A stretch of DNA of 64,000 nt, taken from NCBI RefSeq assembly GCF_054482595.1, contig NZ_CM137008.1; one strand, given 5' to 3'. How positions within the stretch are numbered: the first letter of the stretch is position 1; every line of letters starts with the position of its first letter. Under the pieces are notes generated by a model that saw only the letters and a list, made by a program, of their open reading frames with translations, ran no database searches and was not told the origin of the DNA. Of the stretch, positions 3,528-44,224 are shown one piece after another. The position numbers and the translations under genes were made by a program.

Positions 3528-4898
3528 ATGGCTCGTTCTTTTAAAGTCTTATCGCCAACGGCAATCCTCGGGTATGGATTCCCGGAAGAGAGCTTCCGCA
3601 AAGCGATGGCAGAATCGCCCGATCTGATCGCCGTTGATGCAGGCTCTTCCGATCCAGGCCCCCACTACCTCGGGGCAGGCAAACCGTTTACCGATCGCGC
3701 AGGGGTCAAGCGCGATCTGCGCTATATGATCACCGCAGGCGTGCAAAATAATATACCGGTGGTGATCGGAACGGCTGGCGGTTCTGGTGCCGCACCACAC
3801 CTGGAGTGGTGCCGAGAAATAATTCATGAGATTGCCCGGGAAGAGCACCTCTCGTTCTCGATGGCGTTGATCCCGGCAGACGTTGACAAAGCCATCGTCC
3901 ACCAGGCGCTGGATAACGGCAAAATCACGGCGCTGGATTTTGTCCCGCCGTTAACCCACGACGCGATTGACGAAAGTACGTATATCGTCGCGCAAATGGG
4001 CATCGAACCCTTCCAGCGGGCGCTGAAAGAACGCGCGCAAGTGGTGCTGGGCGGGCGCGCTTACGACCCGGCCTGCTTTGCTGCGCTCCCGATCATGCAA
4101 GGCTTTGATGAAGGTCTGGCGCTGCATTGTGGGAAAATCCTTGAATGCGCGGCAATCGCCGCAACGCCCGGCTCAGGCTCTGACTGTGCGATGGGCATCA
4201 TTGATGACAACGGCTTTACGCTGAAGACATTTAATCCGAAGCGTAAATTTACCGAAACGTCAGCAGCTGCACACACACTGTATGAGAAATCCGATCCCTA
4301 CTTCCTGCCAGGACCTGGCGGCGTGTTGAACCTGAAAGGCTGCACATTTAAAGCAGTCAATGACGGCGAAGTCTACGTCAGCGGTTCTAAGCATGAAGAA
4401 ACGCCGTATGCCCTGAAACTGGAAGGTGCACGACGGGTGGGCTTCCGCTGTCTGACCATCGCCGGAACGCGCGACCCGATTATGATCGCCGGGATCGATA
4501 AAATCATCGATGAAGTCAAAACCAGCGTTTCGCGTAACCTGTCGCTCGACGATGACAGCATTCGCATCAATTTCCACCTGTACGGCAAAAACGGGGTGAT
4601 GGGAGACCATGAACCGATGCAAACTGCCGGGCATGAGCTGGGGATTGTCCTTGATGTAGTTGCACCGACCCAGGAAATTGCCAACAGCGTTTGCTCGCTG
4701 GTGCGCTCTACCATGCTGCACTACGGCTATGAAAACCGCATCGCTACCGCAGGTAATCTGGCGTTCCCGTTCTCCCCTTCTGATATCCAGGGCGGGCCGG
4801 TATACGAATTTTCCATATATCACCTGATTGAAGCCAACGACGCTCTGCGTTTTGATTTCCATATTGAACAGGTGACGCCAGAAGGAGTTCAGGCATGA
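3528..4898 (+). CDS. DUF1446 family protein (AtuA-like), function unknown
   Basis: 456 aa; motifs resembling the AtuA/DUF1446 family (GGRAYDPACFAALP..., GKILECAA); starts 4 nt after the mal stop with no promoter space. Family assignment is from memory, not a search. Confidence 0.6.
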   Translation: MARSFKVLSPTAILGYGFPEESFRKAMAESPDLIAVDAGSSDPGPHYLGAGKPFTDRAGVKRDLRYMITAGVQNNIPVVIGTAGGSGAAPHLEWCREIIHEIAREEHLSFSMALIPADVDKAIVHQALDNGKITALDFVPPLTHDAIDESTYIVAQMGIEPFQRALKERAQVVLGGRAYDPACFAALPIMQGFDEGLALHCGKILECAAIAATPGSGSDCAMGIIDDNGFTLKTFNPKRKFTETSAAAHTLYEKSDPYFLPGPGGVLNLKGCTFKAVNDGEVYVSGSKHEETPYALKLEGARRVGFRCLTIAGTRDPIMIAGIDKIIDEVKTSVSRNLSLDDDSIRINFHLYGKNGVMGDHEPMQTAGHELGIVLDVVAPTQEIANSVCSLVRSTMLHYGYENRIATAGNLAFPFSPSDIQGGPVYEFSIYHLIEANDALRFDFHIEQVTPEGVQA

Positions 4899-5212
4899 AA
4901 CAGTCAATTGTCTCACTGGCGCAAGTCATTCGTTCGAAAAATGCCGGACCTTACGAACTGGTTTTAGATATTTTATTTAAAACGAAAGAAAACTATGAGC
5001 GAGTTAAATCATCAGGGCAATTAACCCCAGAACTGATTGCGCGCTTATATCATGTTGAACCTGACTTTATTCATCGTATTGTCTGGTTTGATCCTTCTAA
5101 CGCAGTAAAAATCGTCATGCCACGAGATATTATCTCCGGGAATGTAGGTGACAATGATGTCTATGGTGCACAGCAACATGCACCTTTATTAAATATGAGT
5201 TTCGATTTGTAA
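4895..5212 (+). CDS. DUF4387-like small protein, usual partner of DUF1446/AtuA-like proteins
   Basis: 105 aa; start ATG overlaps the stop of the upstream DUF1446 gene (ATGA), implying translational coupling; motif IRSKNAGPYELVLDI... resembles DUF4387 as recalled. Confidence 0.55.
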   Translation: MKQSIVSLAQVIRSKNAGPYELVLDILFKTKENYERVKSSGQLTPELIARLYHVEPDFIHRIVWFDPSNAVKIVMPRDIISGNVGDNDVYGAQQHAPLLNMSFDL

Positions 5213-8422: not shown

Positions 8423-9025
8423 ATGGAAGCGCGAATTTCAACTGAACGGCATGTGCAGCGCCAACAGAAATTGAAGGAACAGGTCGATACGCGCGTCGCA
8501 GCGGCGATAGAGAAAAAAGGGATCTTGATTGTTTTCACCGGCAACGGCAAAGGGAAATCCACTGCCGCGTTTGGTACTGTGACGCGCGCGGTGGGTCATG
8601 GCAAAACGGTGGGGGTTGCGCAGTACATCAAGGGGCAATGGGACAACGGCGAATACAACCTTCTCCAGCCGCTGGGGGTTGAGTTTCATATAATGGGAAC
8701 CGGTTTTACCTGGGAGACTCAGAACCGGCAAGCGGATATCGACGCGGCGAAAGAGATCTGGTCGGAAAGCAAACGGATGCTGGCTGACAAGCGTTACGAC
8801 TTAGTGGTGCTTGATGAGCTGACCTATATGCTGGCTTACCATTATCTGGATACCGAAGAAGTGATCGCTTCTCTGCAAAACCGCCCGGCACAACAAAGTG
8901 TCATTGTCACCGGACGCGGTTGCCACAGTCAGATATTAAAAATGGCGGATACGGTAAGCGAAATCCGCCCCGTCAAACATGCTTTTGATAACGGCATACA
9001 GGCCCAGCCGGGTATCGACTGGTAA
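8423..9025 (+). CDS. ATP:cob(I)alamin adenosyltransferase (CobA/BtuR family)
   Basis: 200 aa; P-loop region IVFTGNGKGKSTAAFG and overall similarity to BtuR/CobA as recalled; SD AAGGA upstream; 9 nt after the fumD stop. Confidence 0.8.
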   Translation: MEARISTERHVQRQQKLKEQVDTRVAAAIEKKGILIVFTGNGKGKSTAAFGTVTRAVGHGKTVGVAQYIKGQWDNGEYNLLQPLGVEFHIMGTGFTWETQNRQADIDAAKEIWSESKRMLADKRYDLVVLDELTYMLAYHYLDTEEVIASLQNRPAQQSVIVTGRGCHSQILKMADTVSEIRPVKHAFDNGIQAQPGIDW

Positions 9026-9032
9026 TAACTGC

Positions 9033-9051
9033 GCCTGGCATCCCGCCAGGC
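9033..9051. terminator. Short hairpin (gcctgg-N7-ccaggc) between the convergent stops of the adenosyltransferase gene and the LysR gene; possible bidirectional terminator
   Basis: Inverted repeat read from the sequence; the flanking U-tract is weak. Confidence 0.35.
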
Positions 9052-9058
9052 ACAGGTT

Positions 9059-9964
9059 TTACATCTCCTGCGGTACGACCGATTTCGCCAGCATCCATTC
9101 ACGAAATTGCTGCAAGTGCGGTGAGTCAGACTTCTCTTCCTGCCACGTCATAATAAAACGATTACCGGTACGAATAGGCACATCACAGGGGATCACCATA
9201 TCGCCACTATCCAAATCATGTTGAATAGCGAACCGTGGTAACAGCGCCACGCCGAGATTAGAGCGCACGGCGGCAATCAGCATTGAAAGCAAATCGAAAC
9301 GTGGTCCGTTATTGACCAGCGGACTGCTAACGCCAGATAAAGCAAACCACTCTTCCCAGCCAGTAATACGGGTGCTTTGATGCAGAAGCGGTAACTCAGT
9401 AAGCAGTTCTGCCACTGACAGCTTTTGATCGGACATTGCAAGCAAACTGCCGCTGCATACCGGCAAAATCTCCTCATCAAAGAGATATTCTACTTCCGCC
9501 CAGGGCGCGCAAAAATTTTCGCGCATAATGACAGCATCGTACTCCCGATTAAGAAAATCGCCGTTATTAGCTAAAGAATGAATATTAACAATAATATCGG
9601 GATGTAACTTTGTGAATTCATGTAAATTTGGGATCAACCAGTGGGTACTAAAAGTAGGATTAACGGCAAGTTCAATAACCTGAACCGTAGGCTGCCAGGT
9701 CATAATGGTATTGGTATCGCGTTCCAGCTTATTTAATGTTTCTTTTACTATCCCCAGGTAATACTTCCCTGTATCATTAAGAAAAATGCGTTTTTTAGAG
9801 TGTGAAAATAACGGAGTACGTAAAAATTCCTCCAGCGCACTTACTTGTCTGAATACTGCACTTTGGGTTAACGCTAACTCCTCTGCCGCTCTGGTATAAC
9901 TTTCATGACGTGCGACGACCTCAAAAGTCACCAGCAGTTCCGTTTTAGGTATTTTCCCTCGCAT
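9059..9964 (-). CDS. LysR-family transcriptional regulator
   Basis: 301 aa; N-terminal HTH typical of LysR-type regulators (FEVVARHESYTRAAEELALTQSAVFRQVSALEE) and a C-terminal substrate-binding-like domain. Confidence 0.85.
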   Translation of the reverse strand: MRGKIPKTELLVTFEVVARHESYTRAAEELALTQSAVFRQVSALEEFLRTPLFSHSKKRIFLNDTGKYYLGIVKETLNKLERDTNTIMTWQPTVQVIELAVNPTFSTHWLIPNLHEFTKLHPDIIVNIHSLANNGDFLNREYDAVIMRENFCAPWAEVEYLFDEEILPVCSGSLLAMSDQKLSVAELLTELPLLHQSTRITGWEEWFALSGVSSPLVNNGPRFDLLSMLIAAVRSNLGVALLPRFAIQHDLDSGDMVIPCDVPIRTGNRFIMTWQEEKSDSPHLQQFREWMLAKSVVPQEM

Positions 9965-36769: not shown

Positions 36770-36942
36770 TACTGCTCCTGAACGGTTTACAGGAGTAAGT
36801 GTAGACGATGGTAAATGAATTTTGTGGGGTTATGCTTTCTTCCCTACCAAGCTGTTATATCCAGTTCAAAAACAATCATTTTACATCATCATCAAAGCAG
36901 CGAATACTTGACCGATTGGTAGTACCGCTGCATATTTCACCA

Positions 36943-37200
36943 TCAATTATATTTTATAATTTGTTGTATTGCTGACTTTATATTGCCAATGACATCCTCA
37001 TCATTAAATTCATTTAATATATTTTTTAGAATAGGATGTAGTTTAATATCACCTAAAATACCTGCCAAAATAATAACTTCATCAAAAATTATGTTTTTTT
37101 GCAGTTCATAAATTATAGCAGTTATAACACGATTATCTTTTCTTTCTGCCAGTCCGCTTATAGCTTCAATTCTGGCACAATCATTCTTATCTGTCAGCAT
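36943..37200 (-). CDS. Hypothetical 85-aa ORF with HEAT/PBS-lyase-like repeat character; possibly a gene fragment
   Basis: AT-rich ORF just downstream of the H-rpt transposase gene; repeat-like segments (ARIEAISGLAERKDNRVITAIIYELQ). Weak support. Confidence 0.3.
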   Translation of the reverse strand: MLTDKNDCARIEAISGLAERKDNRVITAIIYELQKNIIFDEVIILAGILGDIKLHPILKNILNEFNDEDVIGNIKSAIQQIIKYN

Positions 37201-37212
37201 TCCAGGGCAAGA

Positions 37213-38349
37213 TTACGAAAGCCCGCTCCCCGCAAGGACTGACGCCAGATAGTTTCTGTCCATGGCTGCTTTTCGCATCTTACGTCTTAACCCTGCCTTG
37301 AATACCTTATCATTCGTCAAAATATTAATAGCAATGTGCCGTATCCCTGAAAATAATTCTGCTGCATTTCCTCTTCTTATTTTGCAGTCGTCTTCATTCA
37401 TTACCACGTCCAGACGCCAGTGCAGCTTATTCTCCACGTGCCAGTGGTTTCGGATTGCTGTGGCGAACTTCTCTGCGGTTAAATCAGCAGAACTGATATA
37501 ATATCTGACCGTCATTTCTGGCTCTTTCTTTTGTTCTGCTATTATGGACCGAAAGGAGACTGCCACGCATAATTTCTTCAGCCCTTTCCATTCAAACGTG
37601 AAATCAATAAGTTCATCAGGGACATCGCAAACATTATGAAGACGGATCTCTTCTCTGCCGTGACTCTTTTCACTCATTGCGTAACTGTCATGCTCTGGAT
37701 TATTTAATTCTTTCAGTGGAAATTTTTCCTCAAAGGCTTTATTAAGCCGCCCCTGATTTCCTTTTACAGCGAATAAATAATCACCGCCCTGTTTTTGTAT
37801 CTTCTCTGCGATATCTTTCTGGCAACCCATCGCATCAGTTGTGATAATTTTTCCTTTAATATCCAGCATGTTAAGAAGTTCAGGGATAGCTGTAATCTCA
37901 TTAGATTTCTCATCCGTCTTGATCTGTCCGATGACCAGACTGTGCATTGTTGAGAACGCACTAATGACATGAATCGCTCCCCTGCGGCGACTCTTGTCAT
38001 AAGAGTGCCGGAGCGTTTTTCCATCAATTGCAATGACGTCTTTATCATCTGAAGAATGGCAGTCACGCATCCAGTTAATAAAGCACTCGTGAAATTTTGC
38101 AGGACTGATACAGGATACAACTCTGGCAATGGTATCGTGAACAGGAATACCATTTTCAAAATCACCATATTGCTTCAAAAAATCGAGATGTGTTTCCCCA
38201 AAATCCTCTATATCTTCCCAGCCTTCTGCACCAGAAATAACGGCACAAATAGTCAACAGTAGAATATCCGATAATTTATGCTCCACTTTCCAGGCTTGTC
38301 TGTAATCAGGGATAATAGAAATATGTTCCATCAATTTTTTAAGTTCCAT
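37213..38349 (-). mobile_element. H-rpt (H repeat-associated) element of an Rhs locus: intact 378-aa ISAs1-family transposase-like ORF
   Basis: 378 aa, [64 protein letters not shown]... matches the YhhI/H-rpt protein family; element ends not determined. Confidence 0.85.
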
Positions 38350-38987: not shown

Positions 38988-39290
38988 TTATTTTGTGTGT
39001 ATTACATTCAACACTTGCCCATCTTTTTTCGCTATTAGTATTGTAAAATTTCCTCCTAAAGTCTTCGGTTGTTTTCCCTCGATTTTCCAACAATTATTGT
39101 CATCTGTAATACTATATGGTTTCTGAAATTCTGCTTTTTCTTTCCCGTATACATATTTAATGTAAACATATGATAATTCCAAAGCCATTTCACGACTATT
39201 TACTAAAATTTCCACTGGATTTTCTTTTCCAAATACTTGTTATGATATTGTAAACAATATCATAATAAGTAATATTAGTGAGTTTCTCAT
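38988..39290 (-). pseudogene. Small secreted-protein ORF interrupted by an in-frame TAA at codon 17 (plus-strand 39240-39242)
   Basis: From ATG (39288-39290, minus strand) the frame reads MRNSLILLIMILFTIS-TAA-QVFGKENPVEILVNSREMALELSYVYIKYVYGKEKAEFQK...HTK. A signal-peptide-like N-terminus continues in the same frame across a single stop. Confidence 0.5.
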
Positions 39291-39458
39291 GTTCTACACC
39301 TATCGAATCTCAAAAGCTGTGGGTAAAACATTACATTCAGAATATATGATATTCTTACCATCGGAATCCATTTTTCCAAATCGACCTTCTGGTGTACCTG
39401 GATATCCATTAAGAACATGTTTTTCCGAATGGTTAATTTATTCTCTCAGGAAGATGTT

Positions 39459-40028
39459 TTATTTTTCTTCACTACGAAGCAGTTCATGCTGTATTTTTGT
39501 TAAACATTCGTAAGACTCATCTTTGTTCGGGAGATGTGCTGTCATTCGAGCATAAGTTGGCTTCTCATCTTTAAAATATTTAACCATGATTGAATTATCA
39601 AGGACTGCCAACAACTGAGCTGGATCACTGCTCTTTTTTTGATAGATACCCGCTCTTATATAACTTCTAAACCGATCGCCGAGAAACGCCGTTTTTTCTG
39701 CTGTATTTATCAACTCCTGCAACGTTCCTTTGATGGCATGATTTTCATTAAGGCGTAGTGACCCGACACGAATTAAGAGTCTCGCCCCGCTTGATGTGAA
39801 TTTATTATTTTTACATGTACCCAGTTCTGTTTGCCAATAATACTCACCGATGTCCTCATTCTGATACCATCTCCACATGGCTTTATTATTTAAGACAGGA
39901 AACGCGGAAAAAATAGTACCCTTAGCGAAAATAGTAAAACAATCATGATCTTTAGCTTGTATTTCGCAATCAGCTATAACACCAAAATTAACAAATATCA
40001 TCAGCAAAAAGAACAAAACTCTTTTCAT
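39459..40028 (-). CDS. Putative Rhs immunity protein (periplasmic; signal peptide)
   Basis: 189 aa, [19 protein letters not shown]|DCEIQ...; its ATG overlaps the rhs stop (ATGA); AT-rich like the Rhs C-terminal tip. It may correspond to K-12 ybfC, but this was not verified. Confidence 0.65.
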
Positions 40029-43000
40029 TTTCTTATTCCTCTCGATGTTCTCTGTTTCATTTTAGCTAAAATTTCACCCAAATCATCTATCCCTGCTGTT
40101 GCTGGCCCATCGGGTTTATTAATGTCTGGGAATAAATAGGGTTCTGCACAAGTATATCCTGGTGGTAATTGAGTTGTTGGCCAATTTGTCTGTGGCAGGT
40201 AATCACTTGCTGTCTTTGTATCCATCCCTGGATACTGGGGATCATCCTGTGGCGTACAAGTCAGATTTGGTTTTACCCACTTCCTGCAATACAGTGTGTA
40301 GTCGTAAGGGCTTAATGCTCTGAAGAATGTTTTGAAAACATTAGGCGCACTACTGGCCTGGTCAATAGGATATGGCAGTCTTAATTGTTTCGCTATGTCT
40401 GGCAATTTACTTGGATCGGGCGTAGGCGGTTTGTTGGGTCTCGCTCCATATCCGCCATTATTTAAGTGTCCATATTTTGATGCCAGTCCCATTGAATCTA
40501 TATACTGAACCGGATTCAACGGATACTGATAAAAATTCCATCCCCCCTTCAGTCCAATCGGATCCTGAGTGATATACCTCCCCTGCAGCGGGTCATAATA
40601 GCGGTGGCGGTTGTAATACAGGCCGGACTCCTCATCATACTGCTGACCCGGCAGGCGGATGAGCTGCTGCAGCTGGTGCGGGTTCTCTTCATTCAGCTGG
40701 TTACCCCATTCATCGTATTCTGCGTACCACGCTGTTGTCCCTTCCGTGCTGATAAGCGCCAGCGGCAGGCCGCGATGGTCGCAGTGGTACAGGTGGATTT
40801 TTCGCGCCGGCGTGTACACCGGGTCCATCTGGTTTTGCATCTGCTTCACCGTCAGGCCGCACGATGCCAGCCAGCGGCGGCTTTCCTCACTCACCCGGTC
40901 AGCCAGGATTTCACTTTCCAGCCGGTCGAGCATCTGCACCAGCACCGGCGGGAACACCACACTGCCACCGTCTTCACCGCCGGACTGCTGAAGGGCATCC
41001 GCCAGGCTGCGGCGCTGCGTTCTGGCCAGTTCACCGGTGGCAGTTTCAACTCTGATGAGTGGTGTGAAGCTCCCCGGCTGATAAATCGTCTGGATGCGGG
41101 TTCTGTCGTTCTGTATCGTGGTCAGGCGGTCGCCATCCCAGCCGTACCAGGTCACTTGCGGTTTCCGTGACAGCGACATCCAGCCCGTCAGGTCCCGTTC
41201 ACGTCGCCATACCCGTTTTGCCACCCTGCGGCCCAGCGGGTCGTAAAGATAGCGGCTTTCGACCAGCGGCTCTGCATATTGTGTCCGCGTGTAGTGCACC
41301 AGCCGGTGCTGACTGTCGTAATGGTACCGGTGGGTGCGCTCATCATCCGTGCGGATAACCCCTTCCGGGATGAGGTCGGTTTTCTCTGTCAGTCTGCCGT
41401 GACGGTCATACCGGTAAAGATAGTGCGCGTCACGGGCGATACGGTTATCCGGCCACATGCTGAGGGTGCTGTCCGGGTGCAGCTCCGGGTCGGGCAGGCG
41501 GTTACCTGCCGGGTCCGTGGCATACGGGATGCGGATATCAAGGTTCGCTGCCGTGGTGTGAACGCCGGTCAGCCTGCCGGAGTCGCTGTAGCTGTAACTC
41601 CGGGTATGGCGCGGGCTGCTGATGCGGATGAGTTCGCCGTTGTCGTTCCAGGTGTAATCGCGGTCAGACTGCAGGCTGTTCAGGTGCTGGCTCTGTAACT
41701 GCCCGGCAGGGGTATAAGCGGTGGTGAGTTCATAATGGCCGAAGCTGCGCAGCGTTTCCCGGTGCAGGCGGTCGCGGGTGAAATCCACCAGCGGTGTGTC
41801 GCCGAGCTTCATGCCTGACAGCCAGCCGCTGCCGTAGGTCAGCCATTCCACGGCGGGCAGGCTGTCCGGTATACAGCGGTTCGCCAGCCCCTGCGCGTTG
41901 TAAGCGTGTCTGGTCTCATGCTGCCAGAGCAGTGCTTCCGTCTGCGGGTGATGCACCGTCTGACGCTCACCGGTCAGGCGGCCTTTCTCATCATACCTGT
42001 AATGCACCGCTACCCGGTGCCCTTCGCTGATATGGCTGATGTCTGTCAGCCAGCCACGTTCGTCATACCGCCACCGCTCTGCGGTTTCACCCTTCACGGT
42101 GCGGTGCGTGAGGCGGTCTGCTTCGTCATAGTGCCAGTGGGTGACCAGACCCTCATCCTCGCTGCGGATAAGTTTGCCGGTCAGGTCGTGGTGATAATGC
42201 TGTGTGCGGCCGTCAAAGCCGGTTTCCTGTATCAGCCGGTCGAGTACATCGTAACGGAAGGTGGTGTGGCTGCCGTTTTCACTGGTCAGGCGGATGACCC
42301 GTCCGGCAGCATCGTATTCCATACTGCGCGTCAGACCGCCCTGCGTGGTACGGATGGCCTTTCCCCACGCATCGTACTGTGTCCCGTTTCTGCTGCCGTC
42401 CGGAGCAATGACGGCGGTCAGGTCACCGGCGGCGTTGTATTCATACCGCATTTCATGGCCCTGCATGTCTTTCACGGCAATTAACCGTCCACGGCTGTCG
42501 TATGCGCGGTACTGACTCAGCCCTTCCTCGCGGTGCACCGCCGTCATCTGCCCGAAACGGTCATGGTCATAACGGGTTACATAACCGGAACAGTCGGTGA
42601 AGCTCAGCAACTGGCCGTAACGGCTCCACGTCATGGTTTTCCGGCTGCCGGTGGCATCGTCCGTTGCGCAGGGTAAGTCACTGTGTGGATTATCATAACG
42701 GTAGCGGGTGATATCGCCGTCAGGGGCGGTTTCCTGAATCAGACGGCCGGATTCATCATATTCCCGGCGCATTTCCAGCCCGTCAGGCCCGGTGGCTGAC
42801 GTTAACTGGCTGTGGTGGTTATAGTAAAATGCCGATGCCCTGCCATCCGGTGTGGTGATGCGCGTGATGAGTCCCGTCACCACATCCGGGCTGTATTCTG
42901 TTGTCCGGCCTGCGGCATCCGTCTGTGCCTTAAGCCTGCCCACCGCATCAAACTGACTCTGCGTGACGCTGCCGTCCGCGTGTTCCTTTTTCACCACCCG

Positions 43001-44224
43001 CTTCAGCCCGCCTTCGCCCTGCGTGTGCAGCACTTCACGGCGGTCCAGGCTGTCGGTGATGGTGATGCGGTTTTGCTCATAACAGTAGGTGTAGCTTAAG
43101 CCCGCCGGGTTAAGCTGCTCTGTCACCCGCCCGTCGCTGTCGTAACGGTAACGGATTTCCGGTCGGCCCGTGTGACGGTGCGCCACCATCCGGCCCCGGT
43201 ATTTATCATCGTAAGTAAAGCTGCGCACCTGTGTATTGCTGCGGTCATACACCGCCGCCAGTTCGCCGCGTGGCGTCCAGCCATAGCGCACCAGCGGCGC
43301 GGCTGGCAGGTTGTCCGGGTATTCCGGGTCGTGCGTCAGCCACACGGCAGACAGACGGATGCCGTTGTCCCGGCCATATTCGGTGTAACCCGGCAGGGTA
43401 TCAGGAAAAGCGGACGGTTCCGTCCCGCCGGAAGAGGCCTGCTGCCGGGCTTCTTCTGCCCGCTGCGCCTGCGTGGTCAGTACCAGCCGGAAGTGACGCC
43501 CGGCACCATCCGTCACGCCGGTGATTTCGCCGCTGAATTCACCGGCGGCTTCGCGGTGGAACGTCTGTGTGCGCCCGAAGCGGTCCACCAGCCCGGTCAG
43601 TACCCGGTACGGCGGCAGCGGCGCAGGCAGCACCTCATCCGCTTCCGGCACCCGCTCACACCAGCCGAGCAGCCACCACGGCCCCTGCGGACTGTTTGTC
43701 GCCAGATAACGATGCGGACTTAAGCGGAGTTCTTCCGGCAGCGCCTGCCAGAGTGCGGCCAGCCGGTGACCTTCATCCAGTTTCGCCACGCCGCCGCGCA
43801 CCAGCCACAGTGACTCGCTGCGGCTGTAACCGTCCTCACCGGGAAACAGGTGCTCAAAATACAGGCTTCTGCCGCCGTTATCACTGAGTATCAGTGTGTT
43901 ATCGCGCAGCTGTAAGCGGATATCCGCAGGCATTTTCCAGCCGGGGCCGAGGCTCCCCACCGGCGCGGGCGTTTTTGTCCGGTAACTGCTGTAGGTGCGG
44001 GAGAGAATGAACGGCAGCGGGGCGGGCAGGGCGATGTCGGTTTCACCGGGAAGGACCTTTGCACCGAGCAGCGGATTGACCGGATGGCCGGACGTCACCC
44101 CGCCGGGGCACACCGAACAGGCCACGCCGGTGGGGGCACCAATACGTACCCCGGCTGAACCCTGGACAATGCTACCGCCATACTGCGTCATGTCGCCCTG
44201 ACGCGCCGCCGGTTTTCCGCTCAT
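40025..44224 (-). CDS. rhsC: Rhs family protein (RhsC-type): PAAR-like N-terminus, YD-repeat shell, variable C-terminal toxin tip
   Basis: 1399 aa, [42 protein letters not shown]...; many YD/RYxYD repeats; core ends near ...[16 protein letters not shown] (40484-40498), followed by a 152-aa AT-rich tip (40028-40483). Confidence 0.93.

Follow-up and report, generated by a model that had tools for sequence, protein, structure and literature searches.

An intact Rhs gene at the rhsC position carries the tip and predicted immunity gene that are orphaned in K-12

A stretch of 64,000 nucleotides (nt) of contig NZ_CM137008.1 (NCBI RefSeq assembly GCF_054482595.1), referred to below as the window and providing the coordinates unless another locus is named, contains at the rhsC locus a full-length Rhs gene of 1399 amino acids (aa) plus stop codon. 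In the list of open reading frames (ORFs) this gene occupies positions 40025-44224 on the minus strand, as do all genes, domains and sites assigned window coordinates below. It is almost certainly an intact Rhs gene bearing the C-terminal tip of YbfO (YbfO-CT) together with the following gene, ybfC, a module which in K-12 is orphaned downstream of rhsC. We further consider it likely that the locus as a whole is best explained as an rhsC-position polymorphic-toxin locus in its 'YbfO-tip attached' form, in which the tip would act as a toxin and YbfC would neutralize it by the mechanism proposed below.

Comparison with the K-12 locus

The window locus is flanked by kdpFAB and ybfA on one side and by an ISAs1 element, ybgA and phr on the other, which is the position of rhsC in K-12, and this synteny is shared with K-12, XH990 and O157:H7. 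The order of genes in K-12 is rhsC (1397 aa), ybfB (108 aa), ybfO (a pseudogene, b0703) and ybfC (189 aa, b0704), and the order given in an earlier note on this DNA agrees with the K-12 annotation. The final 152 residues of the window Rhs protein share 151 of 152 positions with the K-12 YbfO C-terminus, and the 189-aa product of the next gene matches K-12 YbfC at 183 of 189, which bears out the suggestion that the window carries, on an intact Rhs gene, the pair that is orphaned in K-12. At the DNA level, positions 46000-40496 of the window are collinear with K-12 through the end of the rhsC core (96.9% identity) and positions 41530-39420 are collinear with K-12 ybfO-ybfC (97.7% identity), the identity to K-12 rhsC collapsing at 40511-40496. 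The alternative that the tip and the gene downstream of it are those of K-12 rhsC-CT and ybfB does not agree with the comparison: no match to K-12 RhsC-CT, ybfB or the spacer was found in any part of the window, the tip is without similarity to K-12 RhsC-CT (best blastp E 1.6), and neither the tip nor YbfC resembles RhsC-CT or YbfB.

The two arrangements thus have in common a near-identical tip and YbfC, the same ATGA junction between them and the same site between ybfA and ybgA-phr. They differ in that the K-12 tip is found on approximately 1 kb of core lacking a start, downstream of RhsC-CT/ybfB, whereas the window tip completes an intact 1399-aa gene. The K-12 pair is a silent orphan because the core and the ybfO tip are separated by the RhsC-CT/ybfB module, which brings approximately 1 kb of core with it.

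The product of the window gene is a bona fide Rhs element core protein with an unrelated, AT-rich tip. The NCBIfam model NF041261 (RHS element core protein) matches aa 1-1247 with 2637.2 bits, against a curated cut-off of 2000, and the YD repeats of the core are matched in six stretches by TIGR01643 (E 7e-43) and also by Pfam RHS_repeat. A DUF6531 domain (Pfam PF20148, E 3.8e-17) occupies aa 46-123 (43856-44089), and the Rhs-associated core domain (TIGR03696, E 1e-22) occupies aa 1170-1247 (40484-40717) and includes YYDP, QDPIGL and the demarcation motif. The latter, IDSMGL, is a variant of the PxxxxDPxGL type with S for P and M for L; it ends at aa 1247, and exactly 152 residues remain. The G+C content falls from 61.6% in the core to 43.0% in the tip and 36.9% in ybfC, the window mean being 51.8%, so that the division into a GC-rich YD-repeat core and an unrelated AT-rich tip that had been read from the sequence stands. 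A profile that includes the end of the Rhs core matches the solved type VI secretion system (T6SS) Rhs effectors 8qjc, 7q97, 8cp6 (Tse5) and 7pq5 (Tre23), with E values of 1e-21 to 1e-31 over the last approximately 95 core positions. YYDP and QDPIGL are motifs to which Tc and Rhs structures assign a role in autoproteolysis.

Evidence for the tip and YbfC as a probable toxin-immunity pair

Relatives of the tip are few. An exhaustive HMMER search of 1.84 billion representatives recovered just 28, and one more homologue, in Delftia tsuruhatensis, came from a profile search. Wherever their N-terminal sequence is present these relatives all follow an Rhs core end, and no fusion of the tip to CdiA, LXG, MIX or other delivery modules was found by either kind of search. 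The homologues occur in Enterobacteriaceae, in lower-GC (42-46%) metagenome bacteria and in Delftia. Seven divergent ones have 27-47% identity to the toxin domain of the tip (alignment A3), the figure for Delftia being 51%. In all seven of the divergent loci the next gene encodes a YbfC homologue (blastp E values of 1e-30, 1e-11, 9e-25, 5e-27, 2e-6, 3e-26 and 3e-22) of 188-207 aa with a hydrophobic N-terminus or signal peptide, and the two genes are joined by an ATGA overlap, by a longer overlap (up to 14 nt) or across a gap of 1-2 nt, the spacing other than in the longer overlaps being within 0-4 nt. The identity of the downstream protein in these loci is as low as approximately 22-32%, and strict co-inheritance down to such values is the pattern by which cognate immunity genes are normally recognized in genome comparisons. 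From these sequence comparisons it is highly probable that the tip and YbfC are a cognate toxin-immunity pair.

Several of the distant loci add further detail. One (L008, GCA_024809975.1) has a second, orphan YbfC-like gene (4404-4976 of that locus) directly after the first. In another (L003) the module adjoins VgrG/DUF2169, and in D. tsuruhatensis (L015) it is part of a vgrG-rhs island, where a frameshifted orphan (8630-9348 of that locus), made up of a 124-aa core end and a 115-aa tip, represents the tip homologue and is followed by a 197-aa YbfC homologue.

The junction itself is consistent with translational coupling. The Rhs gene ends ...CGA GGA ATA AGA AAA TGA, and the ATG of ybfC at 40028-40026 forms a 4-nt ATGA overlap with the Rhs stop codon, as had been seen when the sequence was first read. 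An AGGA Shine-Dalgarno sequence lies at 40037-40040, 8 nt 5' of the ybfC start and inside the last rhs codons, so that the junction as a whole (40025-40043) consists of a GAGAGGA Shine-Dalgarno sequence within the codons of the R-G-I-R-K tail, followed by the overlap. The AGAAAATGA-type stop/start overlap recurs in the distant loci L003 and L008. We also observed that an R-G-x-R-K tail with the overlap recurs in tip homologues of just 27-47% identity. At the DNA level the tail is accounted for at least in part, since its codons are also those of the ybfC Shine-Dalgarno sequence and of the stop/start overlap, so that coupling of translation, and not toxin function, may be what its conservation reflects. 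Separately, a sigma-70-like site, CTGGCA-18-AATAAT, was seen at 40457-40486, exactly on the core/tip boundary; it could allow rhs-independent transcription of the tip end and ybfC and is offered as a lead only, as a scan of the region for promoters and terminators gave numbers not above the shuffled expectation (9 versus 5.4±2.4 and 7 versus 6.3±2.0, respectively).

YbfC as a predicted periplasmic protein

The ybfC gene (39459-40028) encodes a 189-aa predicted periplasmic immunity protein. Residues 1-19 (39972-40028) have the features of a cleavable signal peptide, in agreement with the earlier note: an n-region containing K2-R3, a hydrophobic stretch (Kyte-Doolittle maximum over 19 residues (KD19) 2.09, at residues 5-23) and a cleavage-type site between V-I-A and D, after A19, which is near-invariant in the family alignment. 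In the family, positions 2-3 are K/R and the near-invariant Ala is followed by a variable residue and then Cys21. Hydrophobic N-termini are found in all eight divergent YbfC homologues, and mature YbfC is hydrophilic. The AlphaFold2 model of YbfC is all-beta (predicted local distance difference test (pLDDT) 75, predicted template modelling score (pTM) 0.71), and in this model mature YbfC appears to be a beta-sandwich. The family alignment contains four invariant Cys residues; among eight divergent family members C30 and C175 are present in all, whereas C21 and C72 occur together in four and are jointly missing from the other four. Such covariation supports the view that the cysteines behave as two disulfide pairs, as would be expected for periplasmic folding. 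No significant profile or structure match to a described domain family was obtained for YbfC; scans of Pfam, NCBIfam and PADLOC gave none, and no relative in the PDB was found by sequence.

We also considered YbfC as a lipoprotein, since Cys21 follows the signal peptide, and rejected this. A lipobox ([LVI][ASTVI][GAS]C) is not conserved in the family, in which D, N, T, Y, A or S precedes the Cys; Cys21 is moreover missing in four of the eight divergent homologues and covaries with Cys72.

Taken together, synteny in all seven distant loci, signal peptides and Cys covariation support both the immunity role and the periplasmic location that had been claimed for the 189-aa protein, and for the toxin itself we favour, with some reserve, action in the periplasm. 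Sec-signal-bearing periplasmic immunity proteins and toxins that are harmless in the cytoplasm of the producer are features of Tse1/Tsi1, Tae/Tai, Tlde1/Tldi1 and Tge/Tgi, which the pair would resemble in this respect. A quite different interpretation is that the site of action of the tip is the cytoplasm or the inner face of the inner membrane, and that the N-terminus of YbfC is an uncleaved anchor, or that YbfC is an unrelated exported passenger with no part in immunity. This would bring the tip into line with most characterized Rhs tips, which are cytoplasmic enzymes such as nucleases and ADP-ribosyltransferases; no enzymatic signature ties the tip to a periplasmic substrate, and the signal peptide of YbfC has been recognized from sequence features. 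We nevertheless regard cytoplasmic action as improbable, given that a YbfC homologue adjoins or overlaps all seven tip homologues even where immunity identity has fallen to approximately 22-32%, that the additional orphan copy in L008 is typical of immunity arrays, that the small residue at -1, A19, is conserved, that the Cys pairs appear and vanish together as disulfides in an oxidizing compartment do, and that the mature protein is hydrophilic.

The tip

The tip (40028-40483), which is K-12 YbfO-CT, begins with a Pro-rich linker (tip aa 1 to approximately 54) that is poorly conserved, and conservation is confined to the last approximately 100 residues, which form the predicted toxin domain (tip aa approximately 55-152; 40028-40321). 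An alignment of 13 sequences gives S58, P59, C66, W69, C76, P107, C112, A130 and D134 as invariant, within the conserved blocks SPYDYtqYC.KW, a second Cys, PG.D.KT..DY.P, lP.GY.C.EPyyFPel and A.tAG.DD. The domain therefore has three invariant Cys residues, and in the same alignment no conserved His; nor does it contain a hydrophobic segment, its maximum KD19 being 0.14, and on this last ground we rejected a toxin that forms pores or inserts into membranes. Judged from these sequence features, a classical pore-former and a His-dependent nuclease both appear unlikely, and the tip may instead be a soluble, possibly disulfide-stabilized toxin with a target in the periplasm or envelope.

A remote-homology search of the tip, which the earlier note had proposed, gave no significant profile or structure match to a toxin fold or family in Pfam, NCBIfam, PADLOC or PDB; sequence-profile searches of PDB returned solely Rhs-core matches, through the core columns of alignment A2. 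Our tentative view, held with rather less than even confidence, is that YbfO-CT is a small, taxonomically scattered toxin domain of approximately 100 aa without a detectable relative in sequence or fold, the immunity protein of which would be a disulfide-bonded periplasmic beta-sandwich.

Proposed mechanism and delivery

Our current working hypothesis, in all that it says of toxicity, neutralization, autoproteolysis, T6SS dependence, periplasmic action and biochemical target, is as follows. The 1247-aa PAAR-like/DUF6531/YD-repeat core would form an Rhs shell which encloses the 152-aa tip and, by analogy with the Rhs family, would free it by autoproteolysis after ...IDSMGL. Following contact-dependent and most likely T6SS-mediated delivery, the approximately 100-aa Cys-containing domain of the tip would be toxic in the periplasm or envelope of the neighbouring cell. 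The translationally coupled ybfC product, Sec-exported and presumably a disulfide-bonded beta-sandwich, would bind and neutralize the toxin in the periplasm of kin. The producer would need no cytoplasmic protection, because the target of the toxin would not be in the cytoplasm.

The solved T6SS Rhs effectors (Pseudomonas protegens RhsA, 7q97; P. aeruginosa Tse5, 8cp6; Photorhabdus Tre23, 7pq5; Salmonella bongori, 8qjb-d) have the YD shell and the core/plug region in common with the window protein, and their encapsulation and autoproteolytic release of the toxin provide the logic expected here. In contrast to the window protein, they have full PAAR or prePAAR-transmembrane domain N-termini, are encoded beside vgrG and eag chaperone genes and carry unrelated tips; the window protein has a PAAR-like N-terminus only, with no T6SS gene nearby in the window. 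The first approximately 40 aa (44105-44224) include a PAAR tetrapeptide, and it is this part of the earlier description of a 'PAAR-containing N-terminus' that stands. The Pfam PAAR_motif match to this region is not significant (E=0.21), covering aa 2-20 and model positions 51-69 of 70, and an NCBIfam scan of the protein gave no PAAR match, with just the tetrapeptide and one repeat-like segment present; a match of that E value over 19 residues does not demonstrate a PAAR domain. Residues 1-15 (44180-44224) show what we take to be a likeness to AARxxDxxxH, the prePAAR motif found in Rhs effectors of the T6SS. This prePAAR-like start is, however, followed by neither a transmembrane region nor a PAAR domain, and DUF6531 begins at aa 46.

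Besides the non-significant PAAR match, a number of points weigh against the proposed mechanism. No fold or family match yields a catalytic mechanism for the tip, and its structure model is weak overall (pLDDT 66, pTM 0.40). The demarcation motif IDSMGL departs from DPxGL, so that autoproteolysis has to be assumed, and cleavage of the YbfC signal peptide has been judged from sequence features and family conservation. The immediate neighbours of the locus are ybfA/kdp and ISAs1/ybgA, and no vgrG, hcp, eagR or other T6SS gene was found near it within the 64-kb window. A literature search found no experiment on toxicity of the tip or its neutralization by YbfC.

A further alternative is that the gene, though intact, belongs to an inert relic: in this strain its Rhs protein would remain undelivered for want of a cognate T6SS or VgrG, and YbfC alone would have a function today, as a defence against other strains. 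Such a state would not be without parallel, as K-12 keeps four rhs genes without a T6SS. The 3,505 genomes that retain ybfC (see below) do so mostly beside a non-expressed orphan tip, and the 64-kb window contains no T6SS gene. An in silico study of enterohaemorrhagic Escherichia coli (EHEC) assigns no VgrG to E. coli RhsA-D and leaves it unclear whether any VgrG delivers them (PMC7216683). On the other hand, the intact 4.2-kb ORF is 96-99.8% conserved among strains, which would be unlikely without selection, and distant homologues are located in vgrG-rhs islands. We consider the relic alternative unlikely, although less so than cytoplasmic action, and put delivery by a T6SS in the window strain at about an even chance.

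Direction of the rearrangement

The kdpA-phr site is E. coli rhs position 5 of Jackson et al. (2009; PMC2935791), who described how displaced tips persist farther downstream as 'dissociated' fragments that have core sequence in common. Salmonella Typhimurium, with its main/orphan rhs system (PMC7043789), offers a close comparison: there too a full-length rhs gene is followed by orphan tip/immunity modules with common core sequence, within which recombination either attaches a tip or displaces it (PMC2935791; PMC7043789). It differs in its tips and immunity genes, and in that evolved lineages were studied, whereas here natural strains are compared.

The K-12 orphan carries approximately 1.05 kb of core, homology to ybfO starting at window position 41530, and identity between the two K-12 copies of the core, taken in intervals of 100 nt over approximately 1 kb, is 94-100%. 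The K-12 orphan is what a single crossover with a circular molecule comprising a core fragment, RhsC-CT and ybfB would leave, and the reverse crossover would regenerate the window form. One possible explanation, which we put at even odds, is that the window form is the older, 'unoccupied' state and that C-terminal displacement, by way of a circular intermediate with approximately 1 kb of core, produced the K-12 array at a later time. Under the displacement model (PMC2935791) the orphan should bear a piece of core of constant length, and K-12 ybfO has approximately 1.05 kb. The attached form is moreover found in divergent backgrounds with diverged alleles (O157:H7, 97.1% aa identity; E26, 96.0%, at another locus), and the same older NTF2 immunity remnant lies downstream both in strains with the attached form and in BL21, which has the orphan form. 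The greater frequency of the orphan form (approximately 2,400 genomes versus approximately 1,070) does not sit easily with this order of events.

Alternatively, the window form may be derived, recombination between the rhsC core and the ybfO core having deleted RhsC-CT/ybfB and re-attached the orphan tip. The near-identity of the two K-12 core copies over approximately 1 kb would provide ample substrate, orphan activation of such a kind has been reported for Salmonella (PMC7043789), and over the shared core the window combines rhsC-like and ybfO-like K-12 variants in a mosaic. A search for recombination breakpoints against K-12 rhsC and ybfO, based on single-nucleotide polymorphisms (SNPs), yielded only this mosaic, with 19 private differences and no single breakpoint. 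The SNPs alternate (O O C O C OOOOOOO CCCCCC OOO C ...), and the absence of a clean breakpoint together with the private differences fits long independent divergence and gene conversion better than a recent single crossover. We see a derived window form as possible but doubtful, and lean slightly towards the window form as the older, unoccupied state because of the diverged alleles in distant backgrounds and the same remnants below both forms.

Downstream remnants and insertion element

Immediately downstream of ybfC, a short open frame (39300-39437), the translation of which ends ...GYPGTPEGRFGKMDSDGKNIIYSECNVLPTAFEIR / ...SECNVLPTAFEIR before the stop codon, is likely to be what remains of the 3' end of an older toxin tip that was displaced; homology to K-12 stops at 39420. 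It is followed by the remnant of an orphan NTF2-fold immunity gene (38988-39290) with an in-frame TAA at codon 17, within which a 75-aa ORF restarts at a GTG (38988-39215). In XH990, O157:H7 and E26 the gene bears the annotation 'NTF2 fold immunity protein'. Positions 38988-39437 as a whole, versions of which are kept in O157:H7, XH990, E26 and BL21, are probably an older displaced tip/immunity remnant.

The rhs array is closed by an intact ISAs1/H-repeat transposase gene (37213-38349; 378 aa), annotated as ISAs1-like ISEc1 in XH990. K-12 has decayed, duplicated ybfQ/ybfL/ybfD fragments at this place, and window positions 38497-37203 match two K-12 segments at approximately 96%. Next to the element, an 85-aa ORF (36943-37200) is a C-terminal fragment of a YibA-type HEAT-repeat protein (PRK09687, E 1e-25, positions 202-283 of 285), and the 370-nt stretch 36833-37202 is absent from the rhsC locus of K-12; yibA is a gene of the rhsA locus in K-12 and E26. 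This fragment, together with the module that E26 carries at its rhsA locus (see below), indicates that the rhsA and rhsC loci have exchanged sequence in the past beside ISAs1.

Distribution and prior description

Frequencies were determined over 5,426 complete E. coli genomes. The tip plus ybfC module (at least 80% coverage) is present in 3,505 of these (approximately 65%), and a contiguous match (at least 80%) to a 2-kb core plus tip query, which extends past the 5' end of the K-12 orphan core, in 1,073, approximately a fifth. Among the 2-kb matches sampled, nearly all were in a single piece and annotated as 'RHS element core protein' followed by ybfC. The Rhs protein of XH990 is 99.8% identical to that of the window, with the same genes downstream. 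O157:H7 TW14359 has a 1399-aa Rhs protein of 97.1% aa identity, a tip with one different aa and a YbfC identical at 187 of 189 positions. In E26 the tip/ybfC/NTF2 module is attached to the Rhs gene of the nikR-yibA (rhsA) locus (Rhs 96.0% aa identity), from which it follows that the module moves between rhs loci.

The form of the locus is real, but it is common and of a known kind, already annotated and described in silico, and the novelty implied by the earlier note was overstated: approximately 1,070 complete genomes, including O157:H7, carry the arrangement. A literature search on ybfO, ybfC, z0851, z0853 and RhsCI found a single paper, the 2020 in silico EHEC study of EDL933. Its passages on RhsC describe z0847 fused with z0851 in the corrected genome, as confirmed by PCR, and designate z0853 (ybfC) the putative immunity protein RhsCI, for which they report a weak TPR motif (E 0.21) as the sole motif and assign no signal peptide or periplasmic location (PMC7216683). 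The O157:H7 RhsC/RhsCI locus shares with the window its site, the 1399-aa Rhs, a ybfC that starts over the Rhs stop codon, the NTF2 remnant and ISAs1; the two differ in allelic respects only. What is new in the present analysis is the YbfC homologue after seven of seven distant tips, two of them near vgrG, and the two covarying Cys pairs of YbfC.

Significance

The locus itself is an instance of textbook Rhs tip/orphan dynamics and of modest interest, and its value lies in what it makes available for comparison. The attached and the orphaned tip at one chromosomal site constitute a natural pair of states for the displacement/excision model. More widely, YbfO-CT/YbfC would be a toxin-immunity family present in approximately 65% of complete E. 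coli genomes, with a predicted periplasmic action that is unusual for Rhs tips, and one that is tractable in K-12, where the immunity gene remains intact. If the tip does kill from the periplasm, it would be one of few envelope-targeting toxins delivered by Rhs proteins, and it would probably act by a new mechanism, either by binding or inhibiting some component of the envelope or as an enzyme of new fold that becomes active once disulfides form in the target cell.

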